Part shown: piece after piece, positions 48,465 to 64,000 of the stretch | How positions within the stretch are numbered: position 1 is the first letter of the stretch | Layout: every line of letters starts with the position of its first letter | NCBI GenBank assembly: GCA_963699175.1 | Contig: OY969418.1 | Span: 2,205,352-2,269,351 of the forward strand | Source of the DNA: an uncultured Acidobacteriota bacterium | Lineage (GTDB): Bacteria; Acidobacteriota; Blastocatellia; RBC074 | Direction of reading: 5' to 3' | DNA: 64,000 nucleotides | The notes under the pieces: model-generated | What the model saw: the letters and a program-made list of their open reading frames with translations, nothing else | What the model was told of the DNA's origin: nothing | Database searches by the model: none | Made by a program: the position numbers and the translations under genes

Positions 48465-51400
48465 CTATCTCACTGTGAAAGCGTTAGCTTTAGTGCTTGA
48501 GCCACCGTCAGGATTAGTGACCGTGACATCGCGCACCGACCTGATGGCATTGGTGGAAACTCTGATGGTGGCCGTCAATCTTGTGCTTGATTCGTACCTG
48601 GTAAAGATCGTTAGCCCAAAACCTTCAATGCTGATCTTAGCTTGCGGCACGAAGCCATCGCCGATAATGGTTAGCGTAATCCGCTCTCCTGGATCGGCAA
48701 AGCCTGGATAGATCTGATCAATCTTGATAGGAATACGAACTTGATGCGGTTCGTCAGATGAAGAACTGGCATTGAAGTTCGTGTCGCTTGCATAGCTCGC
48801 TCGCAACGTTCTAGCGCCAGCCGTGCTTAGCGTTAGCACACAACTCCCCGCAGTCACAGTGCCGGTGCAGGAATCTACCCCATCAGTTATGGTGACATTG
48901 CCTGTCAGTGTACCGCTGCCCGAAGCGTTAGCAGCAACCTGATAATTGACTGTCACCTGCTGGCCAACCAGAGATGGATCAGGCGTATCGGCGATGATCG
49001 TAGTCGTCGTGTTTGCTCGCGCTATCGAGAAAGTCCGCGCGACGTCCGGGGCCGGGCTGAAGTTCGCGTCGCCCGCTTGTGAAGCGGTGATAATGCAGCT
49101 TCCGGCTCCGGTGAGTGTGACAACGGCTCCATTCACCGTGCAATTGCCGCTCGCCGCAAATGACACAGGAAGCCCTGAGCTGGCAGTAGCCGACACCGCG
49201 AAAGGAGCATCGCCAAAAGTCTTGTTCGCTAACTGAGCGAAACTGATCGTCTGGGTTGGAGTATCAATGATGGTGACGGTCGCGGTGCCATTCGCGCCGA
49301 CATCATAGCTACCCGTGTCTCCCAGGATCAGAGTTAAAGTTTCATTGCCTTCCACCAGGTTATCTTTGACCGGTGTGATCGTGATTTCGACAAATGATTG
49401 GCCGGCAGGGATCGTTGCCGCGCCCGTGAGCGTTGGCGTGTAATCAGCGCTCGTGGCCTGTCCTGGCCCAGTGGCGATGGTGTAGCTGGCAGTCAACGGC
49501 CCAAGCAAGCTGCCAGTGCGAGTAATGCGGAAAGTACCGGTGTTGTTTCCAGTTTCCGCCGCGTTGGCGTCTGTGGCCGTGATGTTGATGATCGGTGTTG
49601 ACGAAGCGCCGATGGTTCCGGGAGAGCCGATTTCAGTGCTGTCATTTGCTGCGGCGAACGCGCCATTGCCCCCAACCGCACTCAAAAGCGAAATAGTAGT
49701 GTTGTTCAGTCCAGCCGCATTATCAAAGGTCGGGAATGGGCCGGTGGGAGAAGCGCCAAAGGTCACGCTTGCCTGCACCGCACCTGCGCTGTCGAACAGA
49801 TTGACCTGATCGCCTCCGGTGCTTAGGCCGATGCCTGCGCCGCTGTAGCTGCCGATTCGCAGGCTGGTCGGCGGATTGGCGCCGAACCAAAGAGTCTTGA
49901 AGGCGGCGCTCTTGCCGGCGAGATCGGTGGTTTCCAGGAAAATTACCGATTCGCCAGGGGCAATGCTGGTGATGCCATTCAACTCTACCGCGGTATTGAA
50001 TGAGCGCGAGTCATCGTCCACCCTCCAGCCGACGATGGTCGCAGTGGCGGTGCCTACGTTCGTTACCTCGAACCAATCAACGGCAAGACTGGGAACGCTA
50101 TTGCCGCTTGACCAGGGTGCCACCTCGGAAATGATGAGCGAGGCGCTTCCACCCACAGAGGGTGTAACCATCAGGATATAGTTAGTGGTTGCATCCGGTG
50201 TGCTGCCGACTGCGGGGTCATCTACATTGACGGCGACGTTGTAGGCGGGCTTGACCGTAGAGTTTAGAGCGACTCCCGCTTTCAGATACAACGCCGTACC
50301 GATAATCTGGAAAGCATTAGCGTCTGTTCCGGTAACAGTCAGGTTGTTGCGCCCAAGTCCGTCGTCAGTAACGATAATGTCCGCCAATTTAACTGGTGCC
50401 GCGGTGCTGGTATTTGCCGGAATCGAAGTGACAGTATTGTTCAGCCTGATTGCAGTTGGCGCTAGGTTCGGAGCGGTGGACGGCGCATAAACCCAAAGCT
50501 GCGGATGATCCATGTCACCGCCGCCATTCTCGCTCACCACGTAAAGGTTGCCATCGCGATCCATCGTCAAGCCTTCATGAGTCTGGTCAGCAACAGACAA
50601 AGGATTGCCGGGATCGGCGACGATCGTCATCCTACTGAAGACGGTTCCGGATCGGTCAGTGTTAATGATCTGACCTGATTCCTGGCTCAACACTAGCAGA
50701 TGGCTGAAATCGGGTTGTCCAGTCAGGGACGGCAGATTCGACAGCGCGAACACGTCAGAAAAGTCCGCCAGGTTGGCCAAAGCCGGATTGAACAGATTGG
50801 TCGAACCCGTTGCTGTCGGCGAACCGTTGGTCGCGGTTTTAGCGACAAAATCAATACCGGTCTGGAAAATTGATTGTGGGTCCGCCTCTTTGACGAAAAT
50901 AAATCCGCTGGTCAGCGGATCATAGGAGAGGCCTTCAAGCCCAATGTTTCCGATTGTCGTGCCGAGTTTGACGGTTTGCACGTCAGTTCTACGCAGAATG
51001 CCGCCGCCTACATACGTGAACAAATTGACTTGCCGGTCTCTCTCCTCTACCAACACGAACTTGCCGCCGCCCACATAAGTGATGCCTTCCGGATCGAAAA
51101 ATTCCGTGCCCTGTGCGCTTGAACCAGGAGCCAGCGTCATGGTGTCAATCAGTTGCCCGGTTTTCGTGACCTGAGTCACGGAGGTGCCGCCATCGCCTGT
51201 GATAAACAAGGTATCGGTGTCCCAGTTGTAGGTCACCCCCGAGGCTTCTTGCGCCAGCACATTGTTGGGTGGATGGGCAGTCCGCGTAGGTTCAGGCAGA
51301 TCGAAGCGGCCGATCCTGACATACGTGGATAGATCAACTGAGGTAACTGGTGCTGCGGCCCTGGTAACATGTCCGCCTAGCCCTGCCTGGACACGTTGAA

Positions 51401-51479
51401 TTGAAAGGCCCGCGACCGTGCCGAGCACGAGGGCAATCATAAGTAGGAAGGCAAATAGTTTGGAAAATCCTTTGTTCAC
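48465..51479 (-). CDS. large secreted multidomain surface protein (beta-propeller/phytase-like N-domain, lamin-tail-like domain, Calx-beta, Ig-like repeats, C-terminal IPT/TIG)
   Basis: Signal peptide MNKGFSKLFAFLLMIALVLGTVAG. LTD-like LIISEVAPWSSGNS...DWFEVTNVG...GWRVDDD. Calx-beta-like TFRITRTGSLLGPLTASYTI...ADYTP...VEGNETLTLIL. Terminal IPT-like ...VTVTNPDGGSS...FTV. Domain names are from memory. Confidence 0.7.
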   Translation of the reverse strand: MNKGFSKLFAFLLMIALVLGTVAGLSIQRVQAGLGGHVTRAAAPVTSVDLSTYVRIGRFDLPEPTRTAHPPNNVLAQEASGVTYNWDTDTLFITGDGGTSVTQVTKTGQLIDTMTLAPGSSAQGTEFFDPEGITYVGGGKFVLVEERDRQVNLFTYVGGGILRRTDVQTVKLGTTIGNIGLEGLSYDPLTSGFIFVKEADPQSIFQTGIDFVAKTATNGSPTATGSTNLFNPALANLADFSDVFALSNLPSLTGQPDFSHLLVLSQESGQIINTDRSGTVFSRMTIVADPGNPLSVADQTHEGLTMDRDGNLYVVSENGGGDMDHPQLWVYAPSTAPNLAPTAIRLNNTVTSIPANTSTAAPVKLADIIVTDDGLGRNNLTVTGTDANAFQIIGTALYLKAGVALNSTVKPAYNVAVNVDDPAVGSTPDATTNYILMVTPSVGGSASLIISEVAPWSSGNSVPSLAVDWFEVTNVGTATATIVGWRVDDDSRSFNTAVELNGITSIAPGESVIFLETTDLAGKSAAFKTLWFGANPPTSLRIGSYSGAGIGLSTGGDQVNLFDSAGAVQASVTFGASPTGPFPTFDNAAGLNNTTISLLSAVGGNGAFAAANDSTEIGSPGTIGASSTPIINITATDANAAETGNNTGTFRITRTGSLLGPLTASYTIATGPGQATSADYTPTLTGAATIPAGQSFVEITITPVKDNLVEGNETLTLILGDTGSYDVGANGTATVTIIDTPTQTISFAQLANKTFGDAPFAVSATASSGLPVSFAASGNCTVNGAVVTLTGAGSCIITASQAGDANFSPAPDVARTFSIARANTTTTIIADTPDPSLVGQQVTVNYQVAANASGSGTLTGNVTITDGVDSCTGTVTAGSCVLTLSTAGARTLRASYASDTNFNASSSSDEPHQVRIPIKIDQIYPGFADPGERITLTIIGDGFVPQAKISIEGFGLTIFTRYESSTRLTATIRVSTNAIRSVRDVTVTNPDGGSSTKANAFTVR

Positions 51480-51594
51480 GGTTTATCTCCTAGATAAAAA
51501 GTCGTGCGATCAGAATTGAAGTTCGTTTGTGAGAGATGGAAATGCGTCAAGGTAACCGGTCTGTAGCAAATCCGCTAGCTTTGACTTCGATCAG

Positions 51595-51879
51595 CTACAG
51601 ACCGATGGGCATAATATTGGCGATGAACTGCCCGCGTTCATTAGTTGTCAGCGTGTGCGTGTAGCCGGTCTCGCTATTGCGCACGATCACCGGCGCGTCG
51701 GCAACAACTTTTGCGTCGAGCGCAGTGACGATGTCTTCAACAGTGGCGCTGTCCGAATCGGACTGCGCGCGCACGGTGGTGAAGAGCGCAGAGACGCCGA
51801 ACAACGTAGCGGCAAGCAGGAAATAGAATTTCGCCTTATCGCAACACGACGGTTGTGCCCGAGTGGGTACTGGACGCAT
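51595..51879 (-). CDS. small secreted protein with carboxypeptidase-regulatory-like fragment (doubtful)
   Basis: 94 aa. VIVRNSETGYTHTLTTNERGQF resembles a CarboxypepD_reg strand pair. Could be a receptor remnant. Confidence 0.25.
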   Translation of the reverse strand: MRPVPTRAQPSCCDKAKFYFLLAATLFGVSALFTTVRAQSDSDSATVEDIVTALDAKVVADAPVIVRNSETGYTHTLTTNERGQFIANIMPIGL

Positions 51880-52429
51880 CGGTAACCTCCCTGGTAATAG
51901 CTTAATGGTAGCCCGGTTGTGGTTCGAAGCTTGTGAATAGACATTACTGCTGGAATACAGTCAAGCAAGTTAGCAGGCGCGGGTAAAATCGGCGTTAATC
52001 ACGGCTCAAATCCTGCTTAAGCTTGCCGGGGGGTAGCCAACGGAATTGGATAGTGGCTCAAGCGGGTGAGGCGACGAGAGATTTTAGCGCTGTAGAAAGA
52101 GTCGCAAGCAAATGTAGCAATCACCCGTTGTAGCGTTGTTTTTGTTAAGCAGTTTTGCCATTCTTGACGGTGTTCAGCGCTGAACAAGCCGGACAAGAGA
52201 TTTCTTCATAGCACATAACAACAGAAGCATACCTTGTCTGGACTGTTTAATCCGCTCATCATCATTCTCAAACCACGACCGAACCTTTGACGGCGCGCGC
52301 CGATCATTCGTTTTCGTTTCAGTGGTGGAATCTATTGCTGAAGGCAATATAACCGGCGGCGACAGCACGTGGCTTCACCGCGAATGGGCGAGCCAAGCAA
52401 GTCTGAGGACGTTCTCTGGAGGTTCATTG

Positions 52430-53419
52430 ATGAGAGTTCTGATCACCGGCGGCGCCGGTTTCATTGGCTCACACTTGGCAGATCAGCATCATAAGCGCGG
52501 CGACGAGGTCTACATTATTGATGACCTTTCGACCGGAGCTATGGAGAATATCGAACAACTGAAAGGCTTGCCCCGTTTTCACTACCATCTGGATACGGTC
52601 ACTAATCAACGCTTGACGGCTGAGTTAGTGGATACCTGTGACGTGATCTATCACTTGGCGGCGGCGGTCGGTGTACGCTTAATAGTGGAAAGCCCGGTAC
52701 GCACCATCGAGACGAATATTCGCGGCACTGAAGTCGTACTTGAGCTTGCCGCCAAGAAACGCAAGCGCGTGCTGGTCGCTTCAACTTCTGAGGTTTATGG
52801 CAAACGCAACACTACGCCTTTCAGCGAAGACGATGACTTGATCCTGGGACCGACCAACAAGGGGCGTTGGAGCTACGCCTGCTCGAAGGCGATTGATGAA
52901 TTTCTGGCGATTGCCTACTGGAAAGAGAAACGTGTCCCGACCGTAATTGCGCGACTCTTCAATACGGTCGGGCCACGCCAAACAGGACAGTATGGAATGG
53001 TGATTCCGAGCCTAGTGCGTCAAGCGCTCAAGGGCGAAGCCATCACCGTTTACGGCGACGGCTCACAAACGCGCTGCTTCACCCACGTCACGGACGTCGT
53101 CGGCGGGTTGATGAAATTGTGCGAACACCCGCAGGCGGTCGGCGAGGTTTACAATATCGGCGGCAATCAGGAAGTGTCTATTCTGGAGTTAGCCGAACGC
53201 ATCAAATCATTGACCGGCTCCGCTTCACCTATCGTTTTCATACCATATCACGAAGCATACGAGACTGGCTTTGAAGATATGCTGCGGCGCGTGCCCGATC
53301 TCACCAAGCTCCAACGTCTGATTGGCTACGAGCCGCAGCACACGCTGGATGACATTCTGCGCAGCGTGATTGATTATCAACGAACCAAAATGGACATTCT
53401 CCCTTCGACCTATTCCTAG
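52430..53419 (+). CDS. NAD-dependent epimerase/dehydratase (extended SDR) nucleotide-sugar enzyme
   Basis: GGAGGT RBS. Start MRVLITGGAGFIGSHL (Rossmann GxxGxxG). Catalytic YACSKAIDE (YxxxK). Confidence 0.85.
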   Translation: MRVLITGGAGFIGSHLADQHHKRGDEVYIIDDLSTGAMENIEQLKGLPRFHYHLDTVTNQRLTAELVDTCDVIYHLAAAVGVRLIVESPVRTIETNIRGTEVVLELAAKKRKRVLVASTSEVYGKRNTTPFSEDDDLILGPTNKGRWSYACSKAIDEFLAIAYWKEKRVPTVIARLFNTVGPRQTGQYGMVIPSLVRQALKGEAITVYGDGSQTRCFTHVTDVVGGLMKLCEHPQAVGEVYNIGGNQEVSILELAERIKSLTGSASPIVFIPYHEAYETGFEDMLRRVPDLTKLQRLIGYEPQHTLDDILRSVIDYQRTKMDILPSTYS

Positions 53420-53697
53420 CCCTGGCTGACGCAGGAACACCTATGCTTCTTATCCCTGGTTTTGTATTCTGCTCCCAGGCTTAGCCCTTAGGCACTGTCT
53501 TCGCAGCTCGCCACCGCTGCCCGCTTCATCAGGAAAAAACTGCGAAGATAGAGGTCGTCAGATACCCACAACTTTGTCGCTGCCCTTCTTTCTTTGGGCT
53601 TTTACCGATTGAGTTACACGACTTGGAAAGTTATCCCCTTGCGTAGAGTGTCCGTCAAAGTTTTGCACACGGGGAAACGGACTGTTCGGCACGCGTA

Positions 53698-54137
53698 GCG
53701 CAATCTGCCGAGCATTCGTTTCTACACAAGTCCGCGCTCCTCTAGCTCCGTAGGAGCGCAATGTTTATAGCATCGTAAGCCAGCGCAGCGTTTAGCTCCG
53801 TAGGAGCGGCATCTGCTAGCCTCAGATGCCGCTCCTACGGAGCTAGGAGGCTATTGACGCAACCCCCTAAAAACATTGCGCTCCTACGGAGCGGGGAAAA
53901 TTTGTGTAGAAACGAATGCTGCCGAGGTTGCGCCGCTGCGTTGCCGAAGTGATGGGGGAAACGGATATATGTGATGTGAAGCCGCGCAACCTCGGCAGCT
54001 AAAGTTTCTACACAAGTCTGGTGCTGGCTCGTAAGTCCTTTGCTTTGAGAAATGGCATTTTCGACGCGAGCGCCATAAGTCCCTTAGAATTGGCACAACT
54101 CAAACTTGTGTAGAAACTTTAGCTCGGCAGGTTGCGC
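53698..54137. repeat. complex of four ~32-bp repeats in alternating orientation, forming two large hairpins with nested inner palindromes
   Basis: Four copies of gcgcaa(t/c)ctgccgagc(a/t)...gtttctacacaagtc: 53698-53732 (+), 53902-53933 (-), 53984-54018 (+), 54104-54137 (-). The first loop holds further inverted repeats built on ctccgtaggagc, and gcggcatctg ctagcctca gatgccgc. Confidence 0.6.
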
Positions 54138-54227
54138 TACGCAGGTTCAGCCATCTGATCACGGAGTGGTAACTTTCCAAAGTCGTGAACTGGACCGCTT
54201 TGCGCTACGATTGCCGAATGTTCAGTC

Positions 54228-54722
54228 CTACAATTGCGCCAGAAAATATGCCAGATCAAAGAACTCTCTCTCCGATTGAATTTTCCCCTGCTGGTTGAAC
54301 TTGAAGAAGCCGATGCCTTCCAGGAAGAAGACATTTCCGGTCTTGGTCTTAAAACGCAACCTCCAATTGACGGCGGCTTCCTGACCGCACACCTTGACGT
54401 CCAGGGAGTAGAGTTTGATTTGACTGAAGAGAGTGGGGAACGATGCCAAATAAGCGGCGATGGCTTGTGTTCCCTGGATCGGCGGAATTCCGACCGGGTC
54501 TTCAACCACGGCGTCAGCGGCGAAATGGCTTACGACCCCTTGGGCGTCGAACGCAGCCAATTTGGTAAAAACTTCCTCAATCACCGCCTCGATCTGCTCC
54601 GAGGTCAGATCGTAGGTTGCAGCCGCCTCAACGCGCGTGACGCTCGAAGCGCTCAATAACATGAGCGCCAGCGCCAGCGCCGTCATCTTTTTCAAAAACA
54701 GACTTTGGTTTCTCATTCTCAT
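54228..54722 (-). CDS. SnoaL/NTF2-like fold protein, secreted
   Basis: Start at MRMRNQSLFLKKMTALALALMLLSASSVTRVEA (AAGGA RBS). ~130-aa mature domain with the hydrophobic-cone pattern of NTF2-like proteins. Weak call. Confidence 0.5.
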   Translation of the reverse strand: MRMRNQSLFLKKMTALALALMLLSASSVTRVEAAATYDLTSEQIEAVIEEVFTKLAAFDAQGVVSHFAADAVVEDPVGIPPIQGTQAIAAYLASFPTLFSQIKLYSLDVKVCGQEAAVNWRLRFKTKTGNVFFLEGIGFFKFNQQGKIQSEREFFDLAYFLAQL

Positions 54723-55277
54723 TTCCTTATAGATATTAGGTTGATCCGAGGCGAACATCGCTATGTCATCGGCGTCGATGGCTGCGATTTTCCTCTTCAC
54801 CAAGACAGGCGAAAAACAAAGGTCAAATTGCTGGTGCTGGCGCAAATTTTTTCAATTGACTCAAGGCAGGATGAGTTTATCGAGCGGGTTGTCGGGATTG
54901 CCGACGAACATCCGGAGCACGGCGAAATGAGCGGGATTCGCGCTGAGAATTTCCTGGTTGAAGATCAACAGCGATTGGTCATGCTGTCGAATGCGATGGC
55001 AGGGGCGCTGCAACTCGCGCAAGGGCTGTTTGCTCAAGGGCGCACTTGCGCTCAGGTTCTAGAAATGTTGATGCCCTCCTGACTACAGCTTCGGGCTGCC
55101 AATCGGCAATTGGATGCGCTCGCGCTCAGCACCACCACGGAGGCGATTTTGAGTCAGCGTCAGATTCCGGTGCTGGTGCATCAGTGAAGAGATCTGACGC
55201 TATTGATTGGTCACTGTGCTTCAATTTGAAGAACGCTTCGGCAAGCTTTTGCCAGCCCTCATTGATTTATCAAAGGT

Positions 55278-56189
55278 TTATTTTCCCTCTTTCACCCATT
55301 CCTGCTTCAGCTTTACGTTTAGGCGCAGGCTATTGAGAGAAATCTGGTATTCGAAAAACTGAAGCTGTGTTCTCCCCAAGGTCGTCGTTGCTGGTTCGGT
55401 GGAAGAAGGCGCGCCGATGATTCTAAGGCCGTTGACGCGGCGGTCTTCAGCGTAATGGAGATGGCCGTGAATGATTAGGCGTACCCCATGAGTTATGGCC
55501 AGCAAGCGAAGCGCCCTTCGCTCTGCCTCGGGAACTTGGTGCGCGAGTACTTCCCATTTAGACAGGGCTTTTTGAAAGCGTTTCTGAGCGGTTTCTTTGG
55601 ATGGAATGTTTGGACTGTGATGCAGCGCGATGATTTTGATCGGCACAGCTTGATAACGGCGCAAAACTCTGGCCAGTGCTTCTAGTTGGTAAAAGCTGAT
55701 GTTCCCTACCGCATTGGTTGCGCCATTCAAATTACCTGCATTATTCGAATCAATTCCGATGACGACGATACTTGGATGAGGCTGATGTGCCCAGGGAAAG
55801 CGTGTCTCCAAGCCGCAGTGCAATAGTCCTTGCCTGGCCTTTTCACGGTCTGCCAGCGCGAGCGCTGCACCCGCTGGCAGCCGGGCGATTCCCAATGAAC
55901 AGATGTCGTGATTGCCAGGCAAGGCTTTGACCTTGTTCGCCAACCCTGCGGCGTGGATGGCTTGGCGAAACACTTGCCAGGAAGCGAGGTCTCCACGATC
56001 CGAAATGTCGCCTGTAATCAAAATCAGGCCAGCTTGTTGCAGAGAAGGGGTCAGCAATAACTTCCGAAACCGTTCATTCATTCCCTTCAAGCGACCAAAG
56101 AGGCGTGCCTCTGACCGCGCGTCGTTATCGTGGCTGGTAAGATGTAAATCCGAAAGATGAATGATGCGATAGTGACTAGGGGCTGTCAT
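55278..56189 (-). CDS. calcineurin-like metallophosphoesterase
   Basis: Start MTAPSHYRIIHLSDLHL (GGAAAAATG). Motifs ILITGDISDRGD, LPGNHDI, ALHHSPN, IIHGHLHYAE. Confidence 0.75.
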   Translation of the reverse strand: MTAPSHYRIIHLSDLHLTSHDNDARSEARLFGRLKGMNERFRKLLLTPSLQQAGLILITGDISDRGDLASWQVFRQAIHAAGLANKVKALPGNHDICSLGIARLPAGAALALADREKARQGLLHCGLETRFPWAHQPHPSIVVIGIDSNNAGNLNGATNAVGNISFYQLEALARVLRRYQAVPIKIIALHHSPNIPSKETAQKRFQKALSKWEVLAHQVPEAERRALRLLAITHGVRLIIHGHLHYAEDRRVNGLRIIGAPSSTEPATTTLGRTQLQFFEYQISLNSLRLNVKLKQEWVKEGK

Positions 56190-56425
56190 TTTTCCTGTTC
56201 CTTTCTGCCTGTTTTTGAGTGTTGCCGTTCCTCTTCTTCTGTGGGAAGCCAATAGCAATCCTCGAAGGTTTGCCGATACGCCGGATCAGTGCTTTCGACC
56301 ATTGCCTTGCGATCGTTGGCACGGGCTTCATCGCCATAGGCCAGATCGCGGATGCAATGCGCAATGCATAACGGGGCATCGTCATAGGGGCGAGTCAGCG
56401 CCGCAAGCTCGGCAAAAGGCTTCAA
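56186..56425 (-). CDS. hypothetical 79-aa protein, TTG start, translationally coupled (ATGA) to the metallophosphoesterase; possibly a remnant of a longer decayed gene
   Basis: Stop overlaps the downstream start codon. An upstream region (56430-56700) has protein-like reading in a different frame. Confidence 0.3.
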   Translation of the reverse strand: MKPFAELAALTRPYDDAPLCIAHCIRDLAYGDEARANDRKAMVESTDPAYRQTFEDCYWLPTEEEERQHSKTGRKEQEK

Positions 56426-56980
56426 TCGTAGTCGTCAACGATTGCTCGACCTCGGCTCTATGGTTATCACTGACTGGCGAAGGGTAGAGCTTATGCCGAT
56501 AACCGACCGTGATGGTATTGCCGTTTTTCTCAAAGGCATCCATCCCATGATAATCCCCATAATAATCGCCTGCCCAAGCATCGAATACCCCAATCGTCCG
56601 CCCGTTGCGGCGTCCATCGTGAAAAAGCAGTAGATTGACGATGCGGGCAAACTCACACCACTGGCTGAACTTTTCTGTGGCAGTATTTCAAGTAGTGATT
56701 TTGTCTCGTGAATGCGTCTCGGCGTTTTCCCAGCCAGCTTGCCTCCTTTTTTGTAGCACGGGCTGGCAGTCCACTCTTCATTGGCTTACTTTTTCGGTGT
56801 CGTTAATTTTGAAAACAAAGGTGTGATGCGCAGGCGCTTGAGCTGGCCCTCATTCGGCGTCGTGATCGTAAGCCTATCTTTGACGAGCGAAGTCTCCAGC
56901 ACGGCCGATGCGTACACGTATGTGTGCATAAGGAGAAACGGGCACCCTAAAGATGCCCGTAAGTGAGTGATTATAAAAGT

Positions 56981-57025
56981 CGGGACGCCCGGATTTGAAC
57001 CGGGGGCCTCTTGCACCCCAAGAAA
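56981..57025 (-). other. tRNA 3'-end fragment (T-arm GGTTCAAATCC plus 3' acceptor strand) = candidate attachment-site repeat of an integrative element
   Basis: The reverse complement reads ...cccggttcaaatccgggcgtcccgac. The T-stem/loop and acceptor 3' strand are canonical. No complementary 5' acceptor strand (cgggacg), D-arm or anticodon arm is present upstream. Confidence 0.6.
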
Positions 57026-57140
57026 CAGCCCTATAATTTCCTGAGCCTGCCCAATCTTTCAAATCGTTTCAAACCCTCATATTTACTGGCTTTTTTCATT
57101 TCCCCTGGTGTCATCGAATTTCCTCAAATCGCAATTCAGT

Positions 57141-57161
57141 GTGTCCGCAAATGTGTCCGCA
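57141..57161 (+). promoter_or_regulatory. direct repeat gtgtccgca x2 just upstream of the integrase gene (possible arm-type recombinase binding sites)
   Basis: gtgtccgcaaatgtgtccgcag, 20 nt before the int RBS. Confidence 0.2.
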
Positions 57162-57181
57162 GATTTTTGTGAGGAAGAACG

Positions 57182-58453
57182 ATGAAAGAAATAACCGGGT
57201 ATGTGAGCTACGATAAGAGGCGCAACAGTTGGTGCGGCCGAGTCTCCTTGACTGACCCCGACACCGGCAAAAGGAAGTGGTTCAAGCGCTACGGCAGCAC
57301 CAAGACTGAAGCCCGGCAGCGGGTCAGAGATCTGATCACAAGGTTTGAAAAGGGCGGCGTGCAATCCGTTACCGCTGACCGCCACTCCTTCGCTTACCTG
57401 GCTCAGAAGTTCAAAAAGGAAAAGCTGATCCCTGCCGTTTACCTGGGCGAAAGAAAGATCGCCGGTCGGCGCACCCTCTCCCCGCCCCTAGCCTGGCTGA
57501 ACCAGTTGAGGCTCTTCTTTGACGAGTACAAGCTGACGGAGATTACCGCAGGCGAGGTGCGTAAGTTCAAAGTCTGGCTCTCGAAGATCCCCTCGCGCAG
57601 CCAGATCAAAGAGGAGGACGGCGTGCTGAAACTAATCGTCAAAGAAGACGGCGAGCAGCGTGGCATTGACTCGGTCAACCGGCCCATCGAATTGCTGCGC
57701 ACCATGCTGAATTACGCAGTGGAGGAAAATCTGCTGCGGCCAGAGAACAATCTATTCCTGGCGATGCGCGGCCGTAAGCTGATCGATAGGGCTGCTGAGG
57801 GGAAACGGGAGCGCTTTCCAACCTTCGGCGAGGAACTGGCCCTACTCAAGTTTTGCAACATTGAGGGGCAACTCGGCAACGCTCACCTGCGCCCGATCTT
57901 GATAGTCGCAGCGGATACTGGATTGCGTCGCAATGAGCTACTTACACTCATAGATACTGACCTGGATTTTGGCCGCGAGATTATTCGCCTGCGCGCGTTC
58001 AACGCGAAGACCAACCGGCCGCGCCAAATACCGATGACGCCGCGCGTGAAGCTGGAACTGCAGAAGATGGTGGAAAAGAATAGGGCAGGTCTCGTCTTCG
58101 GCGGGATCAAAAACGTAAAGCGCTCTTATGCTACGGCCTGCCGCAAGTGCGGGATTGAAGACCTGAACCGTCATGACTTCCGGCATGGTTTTGTTAGCCG
58201 GGCGATCCTCGCTGGCATCCCGCCCGCTGTGGCGCTCTCGGCCAGCGGTCACGCCAGCGACGAATGGAAACGCTATCTGAATATGACACCGGATCAGTTG
58301 CAGTACCTGCTTGAGCCGCTGGACGGGCAGGACGCGCAGGAAGTCCAGGTTTATGCGGAAGAGGTTATGCGCGGCCTGCGGGAGGCGCTTAAGTACGATC
58401 AAGTGGAGAGACTCTTTGTGACGCCGCAAACTGGACGCGAGCGGCATGGGTAA
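57182..58453 (+). CDS. tyrosine-type site-specific recombinase / phage integrase
   Basis: GAGGAAG RBS. C-terminal catalytic region with LRRNELLTL..., HDFRHGFVSRAI and the terminal tyrosine region GHASDEWKRYLNM (R-H-R-Y set). Confidence 0.85.
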   Translation: MKEITGYVSYDKRRNSWCGRVSLTDPDTGKRKWFKRYGSTKTEARQRVRDLITRFEKGGVQSVTADRHSFAYLAQKFKKEKLIPAVYLGERKIAGRRTLSPPLAWLNQLRLFFDEYKLTEITAGEVRKFKVWLSKIPSRSQIKEEDGVLKLIVKEDGEQRGIDSVNRPIELLRTMLNYAVEENLLRPENNLFLAMRGRKLIDRAAEGKRERFPTFGEELALLKFCNIEGQLGNAHLRPILIVAADTGLRRNELLTLIDTDLDFGREIIRLRAFNAKTNRPRQIPMTPRVKLELQKMVEKNRAGLVFGGIKNVKRSYATACRKCGIEDLNRHDFRHGFVSRAILAGIPPAVALSASGHASDEWKRYLNMTPDQLQYLLEPLDGQDAQEVQVYAEEVMRGLREALKYDQVERLFVTPQTGRERHG

Positions 58454-58599
58454 AGTCTGGCTAGCCAAAACTGGCAGCTTAAGGCGGAGTACAGCCCTAG
58501 TGTTATAATCTGCGCCAGCCGCGGGCAATACGAGCCGAACGCACTCGATTGATAAAGCACGTTCGGTGCATCCACTTGTTTGTGAAGAGAGGTGAAGTG

Positions 58600-58854
58600 A
58601 TGACGACTGTTTCCGTAGAATTGCCGGAGAGTGTTTTTTCAGCCCTGCGACGTGCACCAGAAGATTTCGTGCGCGAAATGCGGATTGCCGCCGCAGTCAA
58701 ATGGTATGAGCTAGGGCAACTGTCGCAAGGCAAAGCGGCTGAAGTGGCTGGCTTAACGCGCGCCGAGTTTATCAACACACTCTCGCGTTATCAGGTTTCC
58801 CCATTCCAATATACGGCAGAAGAATTAGCGGAGGATTTAGCACGTGCCGAGTGA
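58600..58854 (+). CDS. UPF0175-family antitoxin
   Basis: Start MTTVSVELPESVF... (AGAGGTGA RBS). ...KWYELGQLSQGKAAEVAGLTRAEFINTLSRYQVSPFQYTAEELAEDL matches the UPF0175 consensus. Confidence 0.65.
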   Translation: MTTVSVELPESVFSALRRAPEDFVREMRIAAAVKWYELGQLSQGKAAEVAGLTRAEFINTLSRYQVSPFQYTAEELAEDLARAE

Positions 58855-59047
58855 CCGGGCCGTCCTCAACACCTCACCCCTAATCACCCTCTGCAAAAGC
58901 GGGCAGGAGTATCTGCTTCCGCGATTGTTCGCTGAAATCGTCGTACCCGACGCAGTCTGGGATGAAGTGCTGGCGGGTAGTGAGGTGCGTATTCGCACGC
59001 AACGTGAACACCGATTCGCAGCCAACGTGAACACCAATTCGCATTGA
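58844..59047 (+). pseudogene. PIN-like (DUF3368-type) toxin gene truncated after ~47 codons by an IS21 insertion
   Basis: 4-nt overlap with the antitoxin stop. N-terminus VLNTSPLITLCKSGQEYLLPRLFAEIVVPDAVWDEVLAGSE matches the partner family. The reading then runs into the IS21 terminal repeats. Confidence 0.55.
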
Positions 59048-59220
59048 TCGTGAACGCCGATTCGCACGTCGTGAACACCGATTGGCAAGCCAGTGAACAC
59101 GGATTCGCACGATCGTGAACGCGGGTGTCGGGCGTGCGCCGCCCGCGCGGAGTGTGCTGGAAATCATTTAGACAGTGCTGGACGCTGTCCTCCTATTTTC
59201 TTCAAGGAGGACTCGCTGCA

Positions 59221-60762
59221 ATGCCAGCACCAAAGATTTCCATGCCACGACTCACTGAACTTTTACGTCTCCACGCCGCCGGGCTTTCACAACGTCAGAT
59301 CGCCCAAAGCCTCGACCTCTCGGTCGGCGTCGTCAACAAATATCTCCAACTCGCCCAAGCGCGCGGCCTCGGCTGGCCACTGCCGGCCGAACTGACTGAA
59401 GCGGCCTTGTGGCAACTGCTGGAAGGCGCGACTACGGCGGCCACCAGCACGCCACTCGCCGCACCTGATTTCTCCCTCATCCATCGCGAACTGCAACGCA
59501 AGGGCGTCACGCGCCTCTTACTCTGGGAAGAGTATGTGGCGGTCTATCCCGACCGGCATTACAGCTATGCACAGTTCTGCCGCCTCTACCGCGAATGGCG
59601 CGCTGGGGTCAAGCCCACCTTACGTCAGACGCAGCACGCCGGCGAAAAGCTCTTTGTGGATTACGCCGGGCAGACCGTGCCGATCGTAGACACGCTGACG
59701 GGCGCAGTCTGGCAAGCCCAAATCTTTGTGGCCGTCTTGGGCGCCTCCAATTACACCTACGCCGAAGCGACCGCCACGCAACGGCTGCACGATTGGGTCG
59801 GCGCACACGCGCGGGCCTTCGCCTTCTTCGGCGGCGTGCCGCAATTAGTCGTGCCGGACAATCTCAAGAGCGCCGTGCGCAAAGCCTGCCGTTACGAGCC
59901 GTTGCTCAATCGCACCTATCAAGAGTTGCTGGCCCACTACAACACCGCCGCTTTGCCAGCTCGCCCCTACAAACCGCGCGATAAGGCTAAAGCCGAAGTC
60001 GGCGTGCAGGTCGTCGAGCGTTGGCTCTTGGCACGATTGCGCCAGCAGACTTTCTTCTCGCTCGCCGAACTCAATCAAGCGTTGCGGCACCTGCTCACCC
60101 GACTCAATGACCGGCCTTTCAAAAAGCTGCCGGGCTCGCGCCGCTTTCAGTACGAAGCCCTTGATCGTCCCGCCTTGCGCCCCTTGCCAGCGCAGCCTTT
60201 CGTCTACGCCGAGTGGAAGAAGGCGCGCGTGCACATTGACTATCACGTGGAAGTCGAAGGCCCTTACTACAGCGTGCCGCACGCGCTGATCCGGCGCGAA
60301 ATCGAGCTGCGCCTCACGGCCACCACGGTCGAATGCTTGTATCAAGGTGAGCGCGTCGCCGCGCATCCACGCTCCGACCGCAAAGGCGCGCACACCACTA
60401 ACCCGGAACACATGCCCAAGTCACATCGCGCCCATCTGGAATGGACGCCAGGCCGCTTCCTCAATTGGGCACTGGAGATCGGTCCGCAAACGCGCGATCT
60501 GGTGCAGCACTTACTGACCAATCGCCCACACCCCGAGATGGGGTTTCGCTCCTGTTTGGGCTTGCTCTCGTTGGCCAAAAACTATGGCAAGCGGCGGCTG
60601 GAAGCGGCTTGTACGCGCGCCCTTGCGCTCGGCTCACCGACGCGCCGTAGCGTCGTCTCGATCCTGGAGAAGGGGCTGGAAAACCAACCGCTGCCGGAAA
60701 GCACGCTCGAATTGCCCGCGCCGCGTCACGCCAATTTACGCGGCGCGGACTACTACTATTAA
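59221..60762 (+). CDS. istA: IS21 family transposase IstA
   Basis: Start [31 protein letters not shown] (HTH) after an AAGGAGGA RBS. DDE integrase-core-like centre (...LFVDYAG...). Confidence 0.85.
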
Positions 60763-60786
60763 CCCATCACACGAAGGAGACCTTGG

Positions 60787-61539
60787 ATGCTCAATCAACA
60801 AACACTCACGCGCCTGCGCGCACTCAAACTCTTCGGGCTGGCTGAGGCCTTGGCCCAACAACTGGAACAACCGCCCACGCAAGCGCTCGCCTTTGAAGAG
60901 CGTCTGGCGCTGTTGGTCGAACGCGAAGTCAGCTATCGTGATAACCGCCGGCTACAATGCCTCTTGCGAGCCGCTAAGCTCAGACAGCCCGCTTGCGTAG
61001 AAGACATTGACTATCGCCACCAGCGCGGGCTTGAACGTACGCTGGTAGCCACGCTCACGAGTTGCGACTGGATTCGCGCCCACCACAATCTGCACATTAC
61101 GGGTCCAACGGGGACGGGCAAGAGTTGGCTAGCTTGCGCCTTCGGTAATCAAGCTTGCCGCCAAGGCTTGAGCGTCCGCTATGAACGCACAGGCCGTCTA
61201 CTCGACCAATTACGCGTGGCACGTGGCGACGGCAGTTACCCAAAACTTTTGCGCCAACTGGCGCGGGTAGAGTTACTGATCCTGGATGACTTCGGGCTCA
61301 AACCGCTCACGCAGACTGAGCGCCACGACTTATTGGAAGTGATTGAAGACCGGCACGGTGTGCACTCGACCCTGCTGACGAGTCAATTACCGATCCGTGC
61401 TTGGCACGAATATCTGAACGAACCGACCGTCGCCGACGCCCTGCTGGATCGGCTGCTCAATGGCGCGCATCGGCTCGAATTAACTGGCGATTCAATGCGC
61501 CAGAAAGAAGCCTTGACCAAAGTGAAGGCAAAGCAGTAG
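60787..61539 (+). CDS. istB: IS21 family helper ATPase IstB
   Basis: Walker [23 protein letters not shown]. Walker B LLILDDFG. 250 aa. Confidence 0.9.
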
Positions 61540-61726
61540 AACTTAAGCGCCAGCGCGCTCCGCGCGCGTTCACGATCGTGCCAATCGGCGTTCATGATGC
61601 TTGCCATTCAGCGTTCATCTTCGTGCGAATACCCACCTGAAGCCATAGAAAAGCATTAGTGGTTTAATCTTAGCAGTTGTATAATCCCTGTCCAATTATC
61701 GAGCCTGTCCATAAAAGGAGTAATTT

Positions 61727-61930
61727 ATGAATGATGACAATGGAAAACAATATAGATGCATAGATTGCGGCTACATCTGGACTATTCTTCCTAAGAGTTG
61801 CGCCATGTGTCAATCACACAAGCTTGAGGTGTTCGCTGAGCTTGACAATATAAAGCCGGATAAATTTGATAGACATTTCGTTAATGAATTGTCTCAGCGC
61901 GATCTGCCTTTACGACGCGGCGAGCGGTGA
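61727..61930 (+). CDS. zinc-ribbon small protein, possibly the N-terminal part of a frameshifted Zn-ribbon/WD40 gene
   Basis: AAAAGGAG RBS. YRCIDCGYIW...CAMCQSH. AT-rich. Overlaps the WD40 ORF by 65 nt in another frame. Confidence 0.4.
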   Translation: MNDDNGKQYRCIDCGYIWTILPKSCAMCQSHKLEVFAELDNIKPDKFDRHFVNELSQRDLPLRRGER

Positions 61931-62843
61931 ATGGTTGCGCACCATCGGCGGGCCGGGCGTGTGGAGAGTGGCCTGGTCGCCGGACGGGAAGCTGCTGGCC
62001 AGCCAGTTGGCGGATGACGCCGTACAGGTTTGGGACGCGGCGACGGCAAAGTTGTGGCATACGCTCGGCGGGAATACAGCGTACGGGCGCTTGGCGTGGG
62101 CACCCGACGGAGGGCGGTTGGCCACGAGCGGGAATGACAATAACATTCGCTTGTGGGACGTGACGAGCGATACGTTGTTGCACCGCCTGAGCGCCCACAC
62201 TGAGCACGTGCAATGCCTCGCCTGGTCGGCCGACGGACAAACGCTGGCGAGCGGCGGCAATGATTGTACGGTGCGGCTTTGGAGTGCGGAAGAGGGGAAA
62301 CTGTTGCGCACGCTGCTTACGCCGGAGAGCCACTTGAACTGGCTGAAGGGGGTGAAGTGGTCAGCGGATGGAAAGCGGCTGCTGAGCATAACGTTACACA
62401 GTAGGTTGCATGTTTGGGACGCGGCGACGGGAGAATTGCTGCACACCCTAAACGAGGACGAAGATTTTGGGCTGCGCGAGCTGTCTTGGTCAGCGAGTGG
62501 TGACTTGGTAGCGGGCAGCAACGGGGGCAACACAATCAGACTCTGGGACTCGGCCAGTGGAAAGCTGTTGCAGCAACTGGGTTGTCACGACGGCGACATC
62601 GACAGTATAGCTTTCTCGCCCGATCAGACGTTGCTTGCCAGCGGTAGCAAAAACGGCAACGTCACCGTCTGGGCCATCGAGACTGGGGCAGAACTGCAAT
62701 CCTTTGCCACCAATTTGCCTGCGCACGAACTAAAGGAAGTCGCGTTTGTAGCATCAGGTCCCTTTTCAACATCAACAGTTTTCGGGCAGACGCCGTACGG
62801 CACACCCACGATTGCGGTAACTGTCTTCGAGTCAGGCAAATAA
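61866..62843 (+). CDS. WD40 repeat protein (start uncertain; begins mid-repeat)
   Basis: Seven or more WD40 units (...SPDGKLLAS...VQVWDAATAKL...). No own RBS. Confidence 0.55.
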   Translation: MIDISLMNCLSAICLYDAASGEWLRTIGGPGVWRVAWSPDGKLLASQLADDAVQVWDAATAKLWHTLGGNTAYGRLAWAPDGGRLATSGNDNNIRLWDVTSDTLLHRLSAHTEHVQCLAWSADGQTLASGGNDCTVRLWSAEEGKLLRTLLTPESHLNWLKGVKWSADGKRLLSITLHSRLHVWDAATGELLHTLNEDEDFGLRELSWSASGDLVAGSNGGNTIRLWDSASGKLLQQLGCHDGDIDSIAFSPDQTLLASGSKNGNVTVWAIETGAELQSFATNLPAHELKEVAFVASGPFSTSTVFGQTPYGTPTIAVTVFESGK

Positions 62844-62865
62844 ATGTGGTTGGCTGCTGAACGCC

Positions 62866-63048
62866 ATGCTAATTCGAGAAGCAACAACGAATGACGCTGT
62901 ACAAATAGCATTGGTACAAGTTTCTTCTTCTCAAGAAGCATACAAAGGCATTCTTCCAGCCAAAGAGATTACAGATGAATTTATAGAAAGCCGGGCTCGC
63001 GTATGGGAAGAATTTATTCGGTCAGGGGAAACCAGAATATATGTCTAT
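62866..63048 (+). pseudogene. GNAT acetyltransferase gene interrupted by the IS982 insertion (5' part)
   Basis: MLIREATTNDAVQIALVQVSSSQEAYKGILP...RIYVY, then the IS. Downstream of the IS the frame continues EHEHTVLGFIHFGP, the classic GNAT beta-strand. Confidence 0.55.
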
Positions 63049-63946
63049 CTTGATTGCTAGTTGGCGTTCATAAATTGCCTGTCTGAAAATGAAAGTGACT
63101 AAACCCACTTTCAGGAGGAGCTTATGAACGCCACGTGGATTATAACGGTCTTTGTCATCATTGATGAATTGTTGCAAAAAGGCGGTCATCGTGACCACCC
63201 CTTGGCCCACGTCAGCGACGCCGAAGTGCTCACCGTCGCCATCGTGGCCGCTAAATATTTCCACAACAATCACGAACGCGCGTTGTTGCTTTTGCAAGAG
63301 ACCCCTTACTTGTCAGGTCACTTGAGTGTCTCGCGCTTCAACCGTCGCCTGCACCAGCAGGCTGACTGGTTTGAACTGGCGCTTGCCGTACTCGGTGAAG
63401 TTGCCGCGCGGGGCGCCGTCTTTATCATTGACAGTCTGCCCGTACCGGTTTGCAAGCGTGTGCGTGCCCGACGTTGTCGCAAAGTGCGGGGGCTGGATTA
63501 CTGCGGCAAATGCGCGGCGAAGAAAGAGAAGTTCTTCGGTTGGCGCTTGCATCTGATCTGCACGCCGGAGGGCGTGCCGGTGAGTTTCGCACTCTGGCCC
63601 GCGCGTTATCACGACCTCTCGCCCTTGCACGAATTAGCTTTCGTCCTGCCGCCGCAAGCGAGTCTTTATGGTGACAAGGGCTATATCGCAGGGGCTGACG
63701 CCGCTACCATCCTCGCAGAAACTGACGTACGCTTGATTACTGTGCGGCGTAAGAATATGAAACCCAACACCTGGGGTGATGACATGGACTTGCGGCGCTA
63801 CCGCAAAACGATTGAAACACGTAACAGCCAGTTGGAGAAGATGGGCCTTGAGCATTTGCACGCACGCACCAATGCAGGCTTCGAAATTAAGGTTCATGCT
63901 TCCTTACTGGCGCTGTTTTGGACTAACTTCAACTAGCAATCAAAGT
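63049..63946 (+). mobile_element. IS982-family insertion sequence (~0.9 kb) with 8-bp target-site duplication
   Basis: Terminal inverted repeats cttgattgctagttg / caactagcaatcaaag. Direct repeat ATGTCTAT at 63041-63048 and 63947-63954. Confidence 0.75.
63124..63936 (+). CDS. IS982 family DDE transposase
   Basis: IIDSLPVPVCKRVRARRCRKV..GLDYCGKCAAKKEKFFGWRLHLICTPEGVPVSFALWPARYHD...GDKGY matches the IS982 transposase pattern. From memory. Confidence 0.75.
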   Translation: MNATWIITVFVIIDELLQKGGHRDHPLAHVSDAEVLTVAIVAAKYFHNNHERALLLLQETPYLSGHLSVSRFNRRLHQQADWFELALAVLGEVAARGAVFIIDSLPVPVCKRVRARRCRKVRGLDYCGKCAAKKEKFFGWRLHLICTPEGVPVSFALWPARYHDLSPLHELAFVLPPQASLYGDKGYIAGADAATILAETDVRLITVRRKNMKPNTWGDDMDLRRYRKTIETRNSQLEKMGLEHLHARTNAGFEIKVHASLLALFWTNFN

Positions 63947-64000
63947 ATGTCTATGAGCATGAGCATACAGTTTTAGGCTTCATCCATTTTGGCCCGTGTA

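Follow-up and report, generated by a model that had tools for sequence, protein, structure and literature searches.

Both pSAM2 of Streptomyces and phage 16-3 of Rhizobium integrate into proline transfer RNA (tRNA-Pro) genes by means of arm-site integrases, the shared segment extending from the anticodon region to the tRNA's 3' end, and in many well-known islands the integrase gene is found next to an intact tRNA. An anticodon-loop sublocation class of tRNA integration was reportedly delimited by Williams in 2002. Here, a 64-kb stretch of an Acidobacteriota chromosome is analysed (the window, which always means the whole stretch), in which a 3' fragment of a tRNA-Pro(GGG) gene is followed by the gene of a tyrosine integrase. 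Positions 56921-58453 very probably represent the integrase-proximal junction of a genomic island that was site-specifically inserted in the anticodon loop of tRNA-Pro(GGG). The junction is that of a standard tRNA-integrated island with a lambda-type integrase, biologically expected rather than surprising, and what is new is only the integrase family, its hosts and the pairing of a protein domain with DNA repeats. A precise recombination junction is thereby marked in a large and poorly studied Acidobacteriota genome.

In the Islander collection (Hudson, Lau and Williams 2015, PMC4383910), 3,760 of 3,919 islands have 3' fragments and 2,083 sites are anticodon-centred, while tandem island arrays are also on record there. 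As in those islands, the window contains a tyrosine integrase together with a displaced 3' tRNA-gene fragment at one end, and the target would have been regenerated by DNA of the island; unlike them, the end with the intact tRNA is known here from relatives only, and the integrase family is uncharacterised. With lambda Int and the Int proteins of Tn916/Tn1549 the locus shares the catalytic residues, a small predicted N-terminal domain made of a sheet plus a helix, and, on both arms, repeated putative arm sites some 70-140 bp away from the core. In contrast to those systems, the arm sites are tandem pairs with a single orientation on both arms, the identity in structural alignments with lambda-type integrases is only 14-17%, and no excisionase gene is visible in the window, although an HTH_17 gene is present in one relative (L036). 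Compared with pSAM2 and phage 16-3, other phyla and other isoacceptors are concerned. In the case of ICEAfe1 of Acidithiobacillus ferrooxidans, 19 bp around the anticodon loop sufficed for integration in experiments, as cited in a preprint (bioRxiv 10.1101/2020.11.02.365908), a requirement that matches the breakpoint range (positions 27-33) seen in sequence comparisons of the integrase family of the window.

The junction at tRNA-Pro(GGG)

An earlier note on this DNA had described a 45-nt tRNA piece at 56981-57025, consisting of a T arm plus the 3' acceptor strand and located 156 bp before an integrase gene. The piece is present and in single copy, but it actually occupies the minus strand at 56980-57022, where it reads CTTGGGGTGCAAGAGGCCCCCGGTTCAAATCCGGGCGTCCCGA. 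Both of the parts named are in it, the T arm being perfect, but it also includes the anticodon loop, the anticodon stem's 3' strand, a variable loop of 5 nt and the discriminator A, without an encoded CCA, and it corresponds to tRNA-Pro(GGG). The anticodon loop (tRNA positions 32-38) lies at 57015-57021 and would be the crossover region. When the fragment was searched as a 44-mer, one match was obtained in the window at ≤3 mismatches, with 0 expected by chance. The view that the piece lacks a 5' half and is not a functional tRNA was borne out, since ARAGORN found no tRNA in the whole window and the Rfam tRNA model gave only a 5'-truncated match (model positions 28-71, 18.5 bits, E 0.23), which appears only with the search stretch cut at 57024 and 5'-truncated matches permitted.

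From position 32 to the 3' end, the fragment is identical to the intact tRNA-Pro(GGG) of relatives at 37 of 43 positions, while upstream of tRNA position 31 the similarity drops to 8 of 12. Apart from one T-loop base, the sequences differ by T-stem changes, and since these are paired, the fragment derives from a working tRNA gene. Immediately 3' of the tRNA end there is a terminator-like hairpin with 10 pairs, of which 6 are G-C, and a T-rich tail behind it, on which the terminator scan and the RNA fold agree; a hairpin is found at the equivalent position in all relatives.

The integrase was confirmed by Pfam (Phage_integrase, 1.4e-13) and PHROG (PHROG 1 integrase, 2.5e-43), the spacing being corrected to 159 nt from the last tRNA-matching base to the ATG at 57182. 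The catalytic set Arg-Lys-His-Arg-His-Tyr is present: in an alignment of 28 family members, no variation occurs at R249, H331, R334, H357 and Y365, and the conservation of K276 is at least 90%. In the AlphaFold2 model (mean predicted local distance difference test score, pLDDT, 83), strands 7-11, 16-24 and 31-38 and a helix at 41-57 precede the core-binding and catalytic domains, so that a separate N-terminal arm-binding domain is predicted. The best structural matches of the model are the Tn1549 integrase and the full-length lambda integrase, the latter aligning across 392 columns. A protein search returned 209 relatives, whose names point to Blastocatellia and to further Acidobacteriota. No close characterised relative was found among deposited sequences, the best phage integrase being 30% identical and the plasmid matches 26-28%, and the solved structures gave no sequence match.

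The layout could be compared in eight distinct loci with visible DNA upstream of the integrase gene, namely the window and L001, L002 (identical to L003 and L017), L004, L008, L034, L035 and L036, whose integrases are 73%, 60%, 59%, 56%, 60%, 59% and 56% identical to that of the window, respectively, and 56-82% identical over the whole set. In all eight, the integrase gene is preceded, at a distance of about 150-260 nt, by a 3' fragment of tRNA-Pro(GGG) on the opposite strand. An intact tRNA was seen beside the integrase in none of the eight, an arrangement which the earlier note had named as one that would speak against its reading. The tRNA identity ends at position 31 in the window, at about 33 in L004, at 29 in L001 and L034 and at 27 in L002, L008, L035 and L036. 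As judged from these alignments, the breakpoint always falls at positions 27-33; it is therefore at the 5' edge of the anticodon stem-loop and places all eight loci in the anticodon-centred integration class, that is, the anticodon-loop sublocation.

It is at this point that a mere coincidence, i.e. a decayed tRNA pseudogene beside an unrelated recombinase gene, has to be weighed. Although the fragment by itself scores lower with Rfam than the gathering score of 29, eight loci whose integrases have diverged agree in fragment, strand, spacing and breakpoint, and the paired T-stem changes indicate descent from a working tRNA, which makes this explanation scarcely credible.

Two further loci have lost the upstream arm. 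In L011, an open reading frame (ORF) resembling that of an insertion sequence stops about 25 nt short of the repeats, and in L005/L006 (9600-10000) a 60%-identical integrase retains the conserved leader just before its start codon, while the repeats and the tRNA fragment are gone and an apparent piece of a membrane-protein gene stands in their place. A different class was observed in L023 (7462-7760) and its equivalents in L024 and L027, where the cut in tRNA-Pro(GGG) falls not at the anticodon but at the D arm, at about position 22; some 100 nt beyond, these loci have a tRNA-Pro(CGG) or tRNA-Pro(TGG) that is intact and has a tandem-like repeat and a hairpin of its own. This D-arm breakpoint is distinct from that of the integrase family studied here.

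Putative arm-site repeats and the N-terminal domain

The island-side P arm leads from the core to the repeats. Its first 12 nt in part mimic tRNA positions 20-31, and semi-conserved blocks, such as ATTTCC, are common to the relatives. The arm ends in a tandem pair of TGTGTCCGCA, 21 nt before the integrase ATG, of which no further exact copy exists in the window. A tandem pair is present just upstream of every integrase of the family, the sequence varying by type: type W, TGTGTCCGCA, in the window, L011 and L034; type V, AATGTGTAACACC, in L001 and L004; type U, AATATGTCTCT, in L002 and L035; and type T, AATGTGTGAC, in L036 and L008. In the fetched loci and the window the pattern is confined to arm positions.

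The type of repeat goes with the N-terminal 60 residues, and not with the remainder, of the integrase. In fact, L001 and the window are 43% identical over the N-terminal 60 residues and 77% over the rest, and their repeats differ; L034 and L035 (56% and 82%, respectively) likewise have different repeats; and L001 and L004, with 88% in the N-terminal part and 60% in the rest, have an identical 26-mer. Because of this mosaic co-variation, the tandem repeats are proposed to be arm-type sites which a swappable N-terminal domain would bind. The co-variation of the 60-residue domain with the repeats also represents a natural domain-swap set for the study or engineering of arm-site specificity.

A more speculative extension, which we regard as rather doubtful, is that at least four arm-site codes (TGTGTCCGCA, AATGTGTAAC, AATATGTCTCT and AATGTGTGAC), each with its swappable N-terminal domain, would act as an orthogonality system, allowing related islands to stack at one tRNA-Pro(GGG) without excising or displacing each other. 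The island of the window would then use code TGTGTCCGCA, and an earlier tenant would have left behind the relic repeat to the left of it.

A variant pair, AATGTGTCCGCAC twice, occupies the arm position to the right of the tRNA fragment in L013 (13574-13600) and L014 (3242-3268). No integrase gene follows the pair in these two loci, which look like islands minus their integrase.

Host side, predicted far end and proposed tandem stacking

Three loci (L004, L034 and L035) have the left flank in common, at 79-89% identity, and carry on the right three different integrase types and partly different genes. In addition, L008 and L014, with fragment and foreign DNA, have the same left flank as L022 and L026, where the tRNA is intact; the homology between the two pairs ends 117-118 nt past the repeat start, at about tRNA position 27, so that for these relatives an empty site can be set against an occupied one. 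To the right of the integrase, the relatives carry cargo of the mobile-element kind: an HTH_17 excisionase-like gene, a primase-polymerase and a family B polymerase in L036, a ParB-like gene, three tyrosine recombinases and a TraG/TrwB-like gene in L001, and a mercury-resistance cluster in L002. Since the left flanks are shared with loci that have an intact tRNA or other insertions, and mobile cargo lies rightward, the island is the right side; host DNA on the left and island on the right of the fragment is thus the supported assignment, as far as flank comparison can tell, and the orientation proposed in the earlier note stands.

The reverse arrangement, an island to the left of the fragment with the integrase just outside it, would recall the many islands in which the integrase adjoins the intact tRNA. 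Nevertheless, the tRNA terminator lies on the left, the left flanks are common to occupied and empty sites and to loci with different insertions on the right, and the cargo comes after the integrase, all of which renders it highly improbable. For the lineage of the window itself, a search for the empty site by way of the 84%-identical epimerase gave no synteny. As the epimerase gene has at most 84% protein identity to anything else, the host is a member of the Acidobacteriota without a close relative.

Some features of these relatives deserve separate mention. In the island of L036 (11421-21314), the primase-polymerase/DUF927 gene encodes 932 residues. The family B polymerase of the same locus has more than 1,500 homologues (E ≤ 1e-20), mostly in Blastocatellia, which suggests a large class of self-replicating elements in that group; two of these homologues sit in other, larger elements with no integrase nearby. 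The three recombinase genes of L001 are consecutive and, with the ParB-like and TraG/TrwB-like genes, occupy 4984-8148.

The far end was approached through the 22-mer formed by the tandem pair of the window, which was looked for in public metagenomes and in 185,579 species genomes. It was found in 23 loci (16 from the genome scan), and in 22 of them within a fixed module composed of TCCCAA, the 22-mer, a hairpin and the 3' end of a tRNA-Pro gene, which is an intact tRNA-Pro(GGG) in 13 of these 22. On the 5' side of the tRNA, MerR-family and integration host factor (IHF)-like genes recur in many of the loci. On the repeat side, where a phosphoketolase and its neighbours lie, most genomes agree at 94-99.9% identity along about 2.4 kb (L028, the most divergent locus, at 83-84%), whereas the MerR/IHF side is 70-80% identical and mostly unalignable; the high-identity alignments end at the tRNA 5' end. 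The identity of the repeat side being far above that of the other, the repeat side, found in many Blastocatellia genomes, is island DNA that has spread horizontally, with the module as its tRNA-proximal arm. The candidate reading of the repeat-hairpin module as host DNA, considered since the phosphoketolase adjoins it in many genomes, was rejected on the same difference in flank identity. The repeat-hairpin-tRNA module of the type-W relatives is accordingly the architecture predicted for the far end, where the earlier note had expected the intact tRNA. No MerR or IHF gene is present in the window.

Several metagenome-assembled genomes labelled Heliomicrobium, Heliobacteriaceae or Gammaproteobacteria bear a Blastocatellia-type tRNA-Pro locus or its integrase and polymerase (L015, L019, L020, L022, L028; P0035, P0126, P0127). 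These labels are probably binning or labelling errors.

A repeat-hairpin module is also found to the left of the fragment at integrase-proximal junctions in the relatives, and in 5 of 6 loci its repeat type does not match that of the resident integrase. For this reason, a complex chromosomal target with arm sites for the resident integrase was rejected. A dnd-associated methyltransferase gene (TIGR04096, 2e-201) lies near the left modules, with its full length kept in L008 and with truncations that increase over L014, L026 and L022, and a reverse-transcriptase-like gene is beside the left module in L002. The simplest reading of these arrangements would be that of successive integrations into the regenerated tRNA, with older islands shifted leftward and decaying. 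In the window, the left module is reduced to the hairpin and one degenerate repeat, ATGTGTGCA, which aligns with the second repeat of the left-hand modules in L002, L004 and L034 and may be a relic of an older P' arm.

This raises the question of whether the junction of the window is itself part of a tandem array. An island of greater age, now decayed, would then be present on the left, its tRNA-proximal arm surviving as the degenerate repeat and hairpin at 56921-56960. The mismatched left modules of the relatives and their island-like neighbours, i.e. the methyltransferase with its nested truncations and the reverse-transcriptase-like gene, would agree with it, as would the fall in guanine-plus-cytosine (GC) content to 52-53% across about 51000-58000 of the window. 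On the other hand, the genes on the left are ordinary (metallophosphatase, SnoaL-like, epimerase and TonB-type receptor), no integrase or second fragment is found in the 57 kb to the left, and the repeat relic is a single degenerate copy. We therefore consider an array at this particular junction rather unlikely.

Taken as an island inserted at the anticodon loop of tRNA-Pro(GGG), the locus is read as follows. As the comparisons show, the 3' part that the tRNA had originally was displaced together with its terminator, both now being to the left of the junction, while the island begins at the anticodon loop and runs rightward through the 117-nt arm, the two TGTGTCCGCA repeats and the intact lambda-type integrase gene. 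The C-terminal domains of the integrase would cut and rejoin DNA at the anticodon-loop core, and the N-terminal domain would bind the tandem repeats and thereby form a bridge between arm and core, as it does in lambda. The far end would carry its own copy of the tRNA 3' part, regenerating a working tRNA, and the repeat expected there, rightward of the window and beside a hairpin and a minus-strand tRNA-Pro(GGG), is TGTGTCCGCAAATGTGTCCGCA. Islands of this integrase family would stack in tandem at the tRNA-Pro(GGG), the integration module of the window being apparently intact while its cargo has been struck by two insertion sequences and probably by at least one rearrangement. The widespread integrase family makes tRNA-Pro(GGG) a hotspot of gene gain in Blastocatellia, with a cargo of mercury resistance, defence genes, phosphoketolase and polymerase-bearing elements.

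Cargo and state of the island

The features of the junction and of the DNA to its right are collected in Table 1. The suggestion of the earlier note that the island is decaying holds for the UPF0175 antitoxin, the truncated toxin, the IS21-family element and the second DDE transposase, while the short ORF beyond 61636 that it called GNAT has no Pfam support, and neither has a PIN label for the toxin-like gene; of its zinc-ribbon/WD40 gene, the WD40 part was recovered with confidence and the zinc-ribbon part by weak matches. The pair formed by the integrase and the UPF0175 gene recurs on contigs of identical and 84%-identical integrases, where the upstream genes differ. The toxin-like partner gene is interrupted at 58986 and does not resume past the IS21-family element; it has no Pfam match, and PIN/DUF3368 is a tentative identity.

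Table 1. Coordinates of the features at the integrase-proximal junction and in the adjoining part of the window
Feature	Position	Strand	Basis
Degenerate single repeat copy, ATGTGTGCA	56921-56929	+	Alignment with second repeat of left-hand modules in three relatives
Terminator-like hairpin, immediately 3' of tRNA end	56938-56960	-	Terminator scan, RNA fold
Displaced 3' fragment, tRNA-Pro(GGG) positions 31-73	56980-57022	-	Alignment, Rfam, 44-mer search
Island-side P arm, core to repeats, 117 nt	57023-57139	+	Comparison with relatives
Tandem direct repeat TGTGTCCGCA x2, period 12, type W	57140-57161	+	Only exact copies in window
Tyrosine integrase, 423 residues, apparently intact	57182-58453	+	Pfam, PHROG, conserved catalytic residues
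UPF0175-family antitoxin-like gene	58549-58854	+	Pfam 4.5e-30; beside integrase in close relatives
5' part of toxin-like partner gene, cut by IS21-family element	58844-58985	+	ORF enters end of insertion sequence
IS21-family insertion sequence	58986-61635	+	Pfam; terminal inverted repeats
Small zinc-ribbon-like ORF and WD40 gene	61727-62843	+	WD40 1.2e-40; zinc-ribbon matches weak
Second transposase, DDE_Tnp_1 type	63124-63936	+	Pfam 3.6e-20

The IS21-family element encodes IstA (59125-60762; Pfam rve and Mu-transpos_C_2) and IstB (60787-61539; Pfam IstB_IS21, 2.4e-75), and its ends read TGCGTATTCGCACG and TGGGTATTCGCACG. Five to six terminal repeats of 22-23 nt are present at its left end. 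Whether the zinc-ribbon-like ORF and the WD40 gene are original island cargo is uncertain.

As regards the kind of element, no conjugation genes (coupling protein, relaxase or type IV secretion) were found in the 7 kb visible, and an integrative conjugative element is not supported by that part. A prophage is not supported either: with respect to phage structural and lysis genes, only the integrase matches PHROGs in the window; in viral contigs, both repeat types tested gave 0 matches and the 17-mer of the tRNA-Pro anticodon arm only chance matches within coding DNA. One viral-contig integrase is 42% identical, and it lies at a contig end.

Several observations weigh against the interpretation of the locus as one end of a complete tRNA-integrated island. 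The far end would lie beyond the window, its architecture being known from relatives only, and within 7 kb to the right of the junction there is neither a second copy of the fragment nor one of the 22-mer. The 32-mer of the fragment gave 0 matches in the scan of 185,579 species genomes, which means either that the source genome is outside the scanned collection or that there is no exact far-end copy. In 58454-64000 no excisionase gene is recognisable. The IS21-family element is flanked by tgagg and cctga, with no target-site duplication, which points to a deletion or recombination mediated by the insertion sequence; with the duplication missing and the 3' part of the toxin gene gone, a rearrangement may have brought in the DNA beyond 61636, which would then not be contiguous island. 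Moreover, binding of the TGTGTCCGCA repeats by the integrase is deduced from co-variation, and in L010 (Ga0114950_10001300, 1-2400) the exact 22-mer stands between an intact tRNA-Pro(TGG) and an unrelated tyrosine integrase of 408 residues (BLASTP E 0.61 with the window integrase). That locus has other tandem pairs as well, GAGTGTATTCAAGTGTATTCG after a hairpin and GTGTGCAATTAAGTGTGCAATTAAC upstream of the tRNA, and the T arm of its tRNA-Pro(TGG) equals that of the window fragment.

Part of these observations would also fit a truncated relic, in which a rearrangement mediated by insertion sequences split the integrase end from the far end, leaving no matching tRNA on the segment and excision lost. 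The IS21-family element without target-site duplication and the missing 3' part of the toxin gene agree with it, and so do the presence of two insertion sequences within 7 kb and the lack of an exact copy of the 32-mer in the genome scan. Nevertheless, the integrase ORF is intact, as are its catalytic residues and the two repeats, and negative scans are uninformative if the source genome is missing from the collection. We hold such a relic to be possible, though on the unlikely side, and retain the junction of a site-specifically inserted island as the preferred explanation.

Two minor observations concern the DNA to the left. Outside the low-GC region already mentioned, the GC content of the window is 56-60%, and the DNA left of the junction might be older acquired DNA. 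Furthermore, a 126-nt unit is repeated 10.7 times (86% matches) at 4552-5905 of the window, within an ORF of 1,463 residues on the minus strand (4231-8622).

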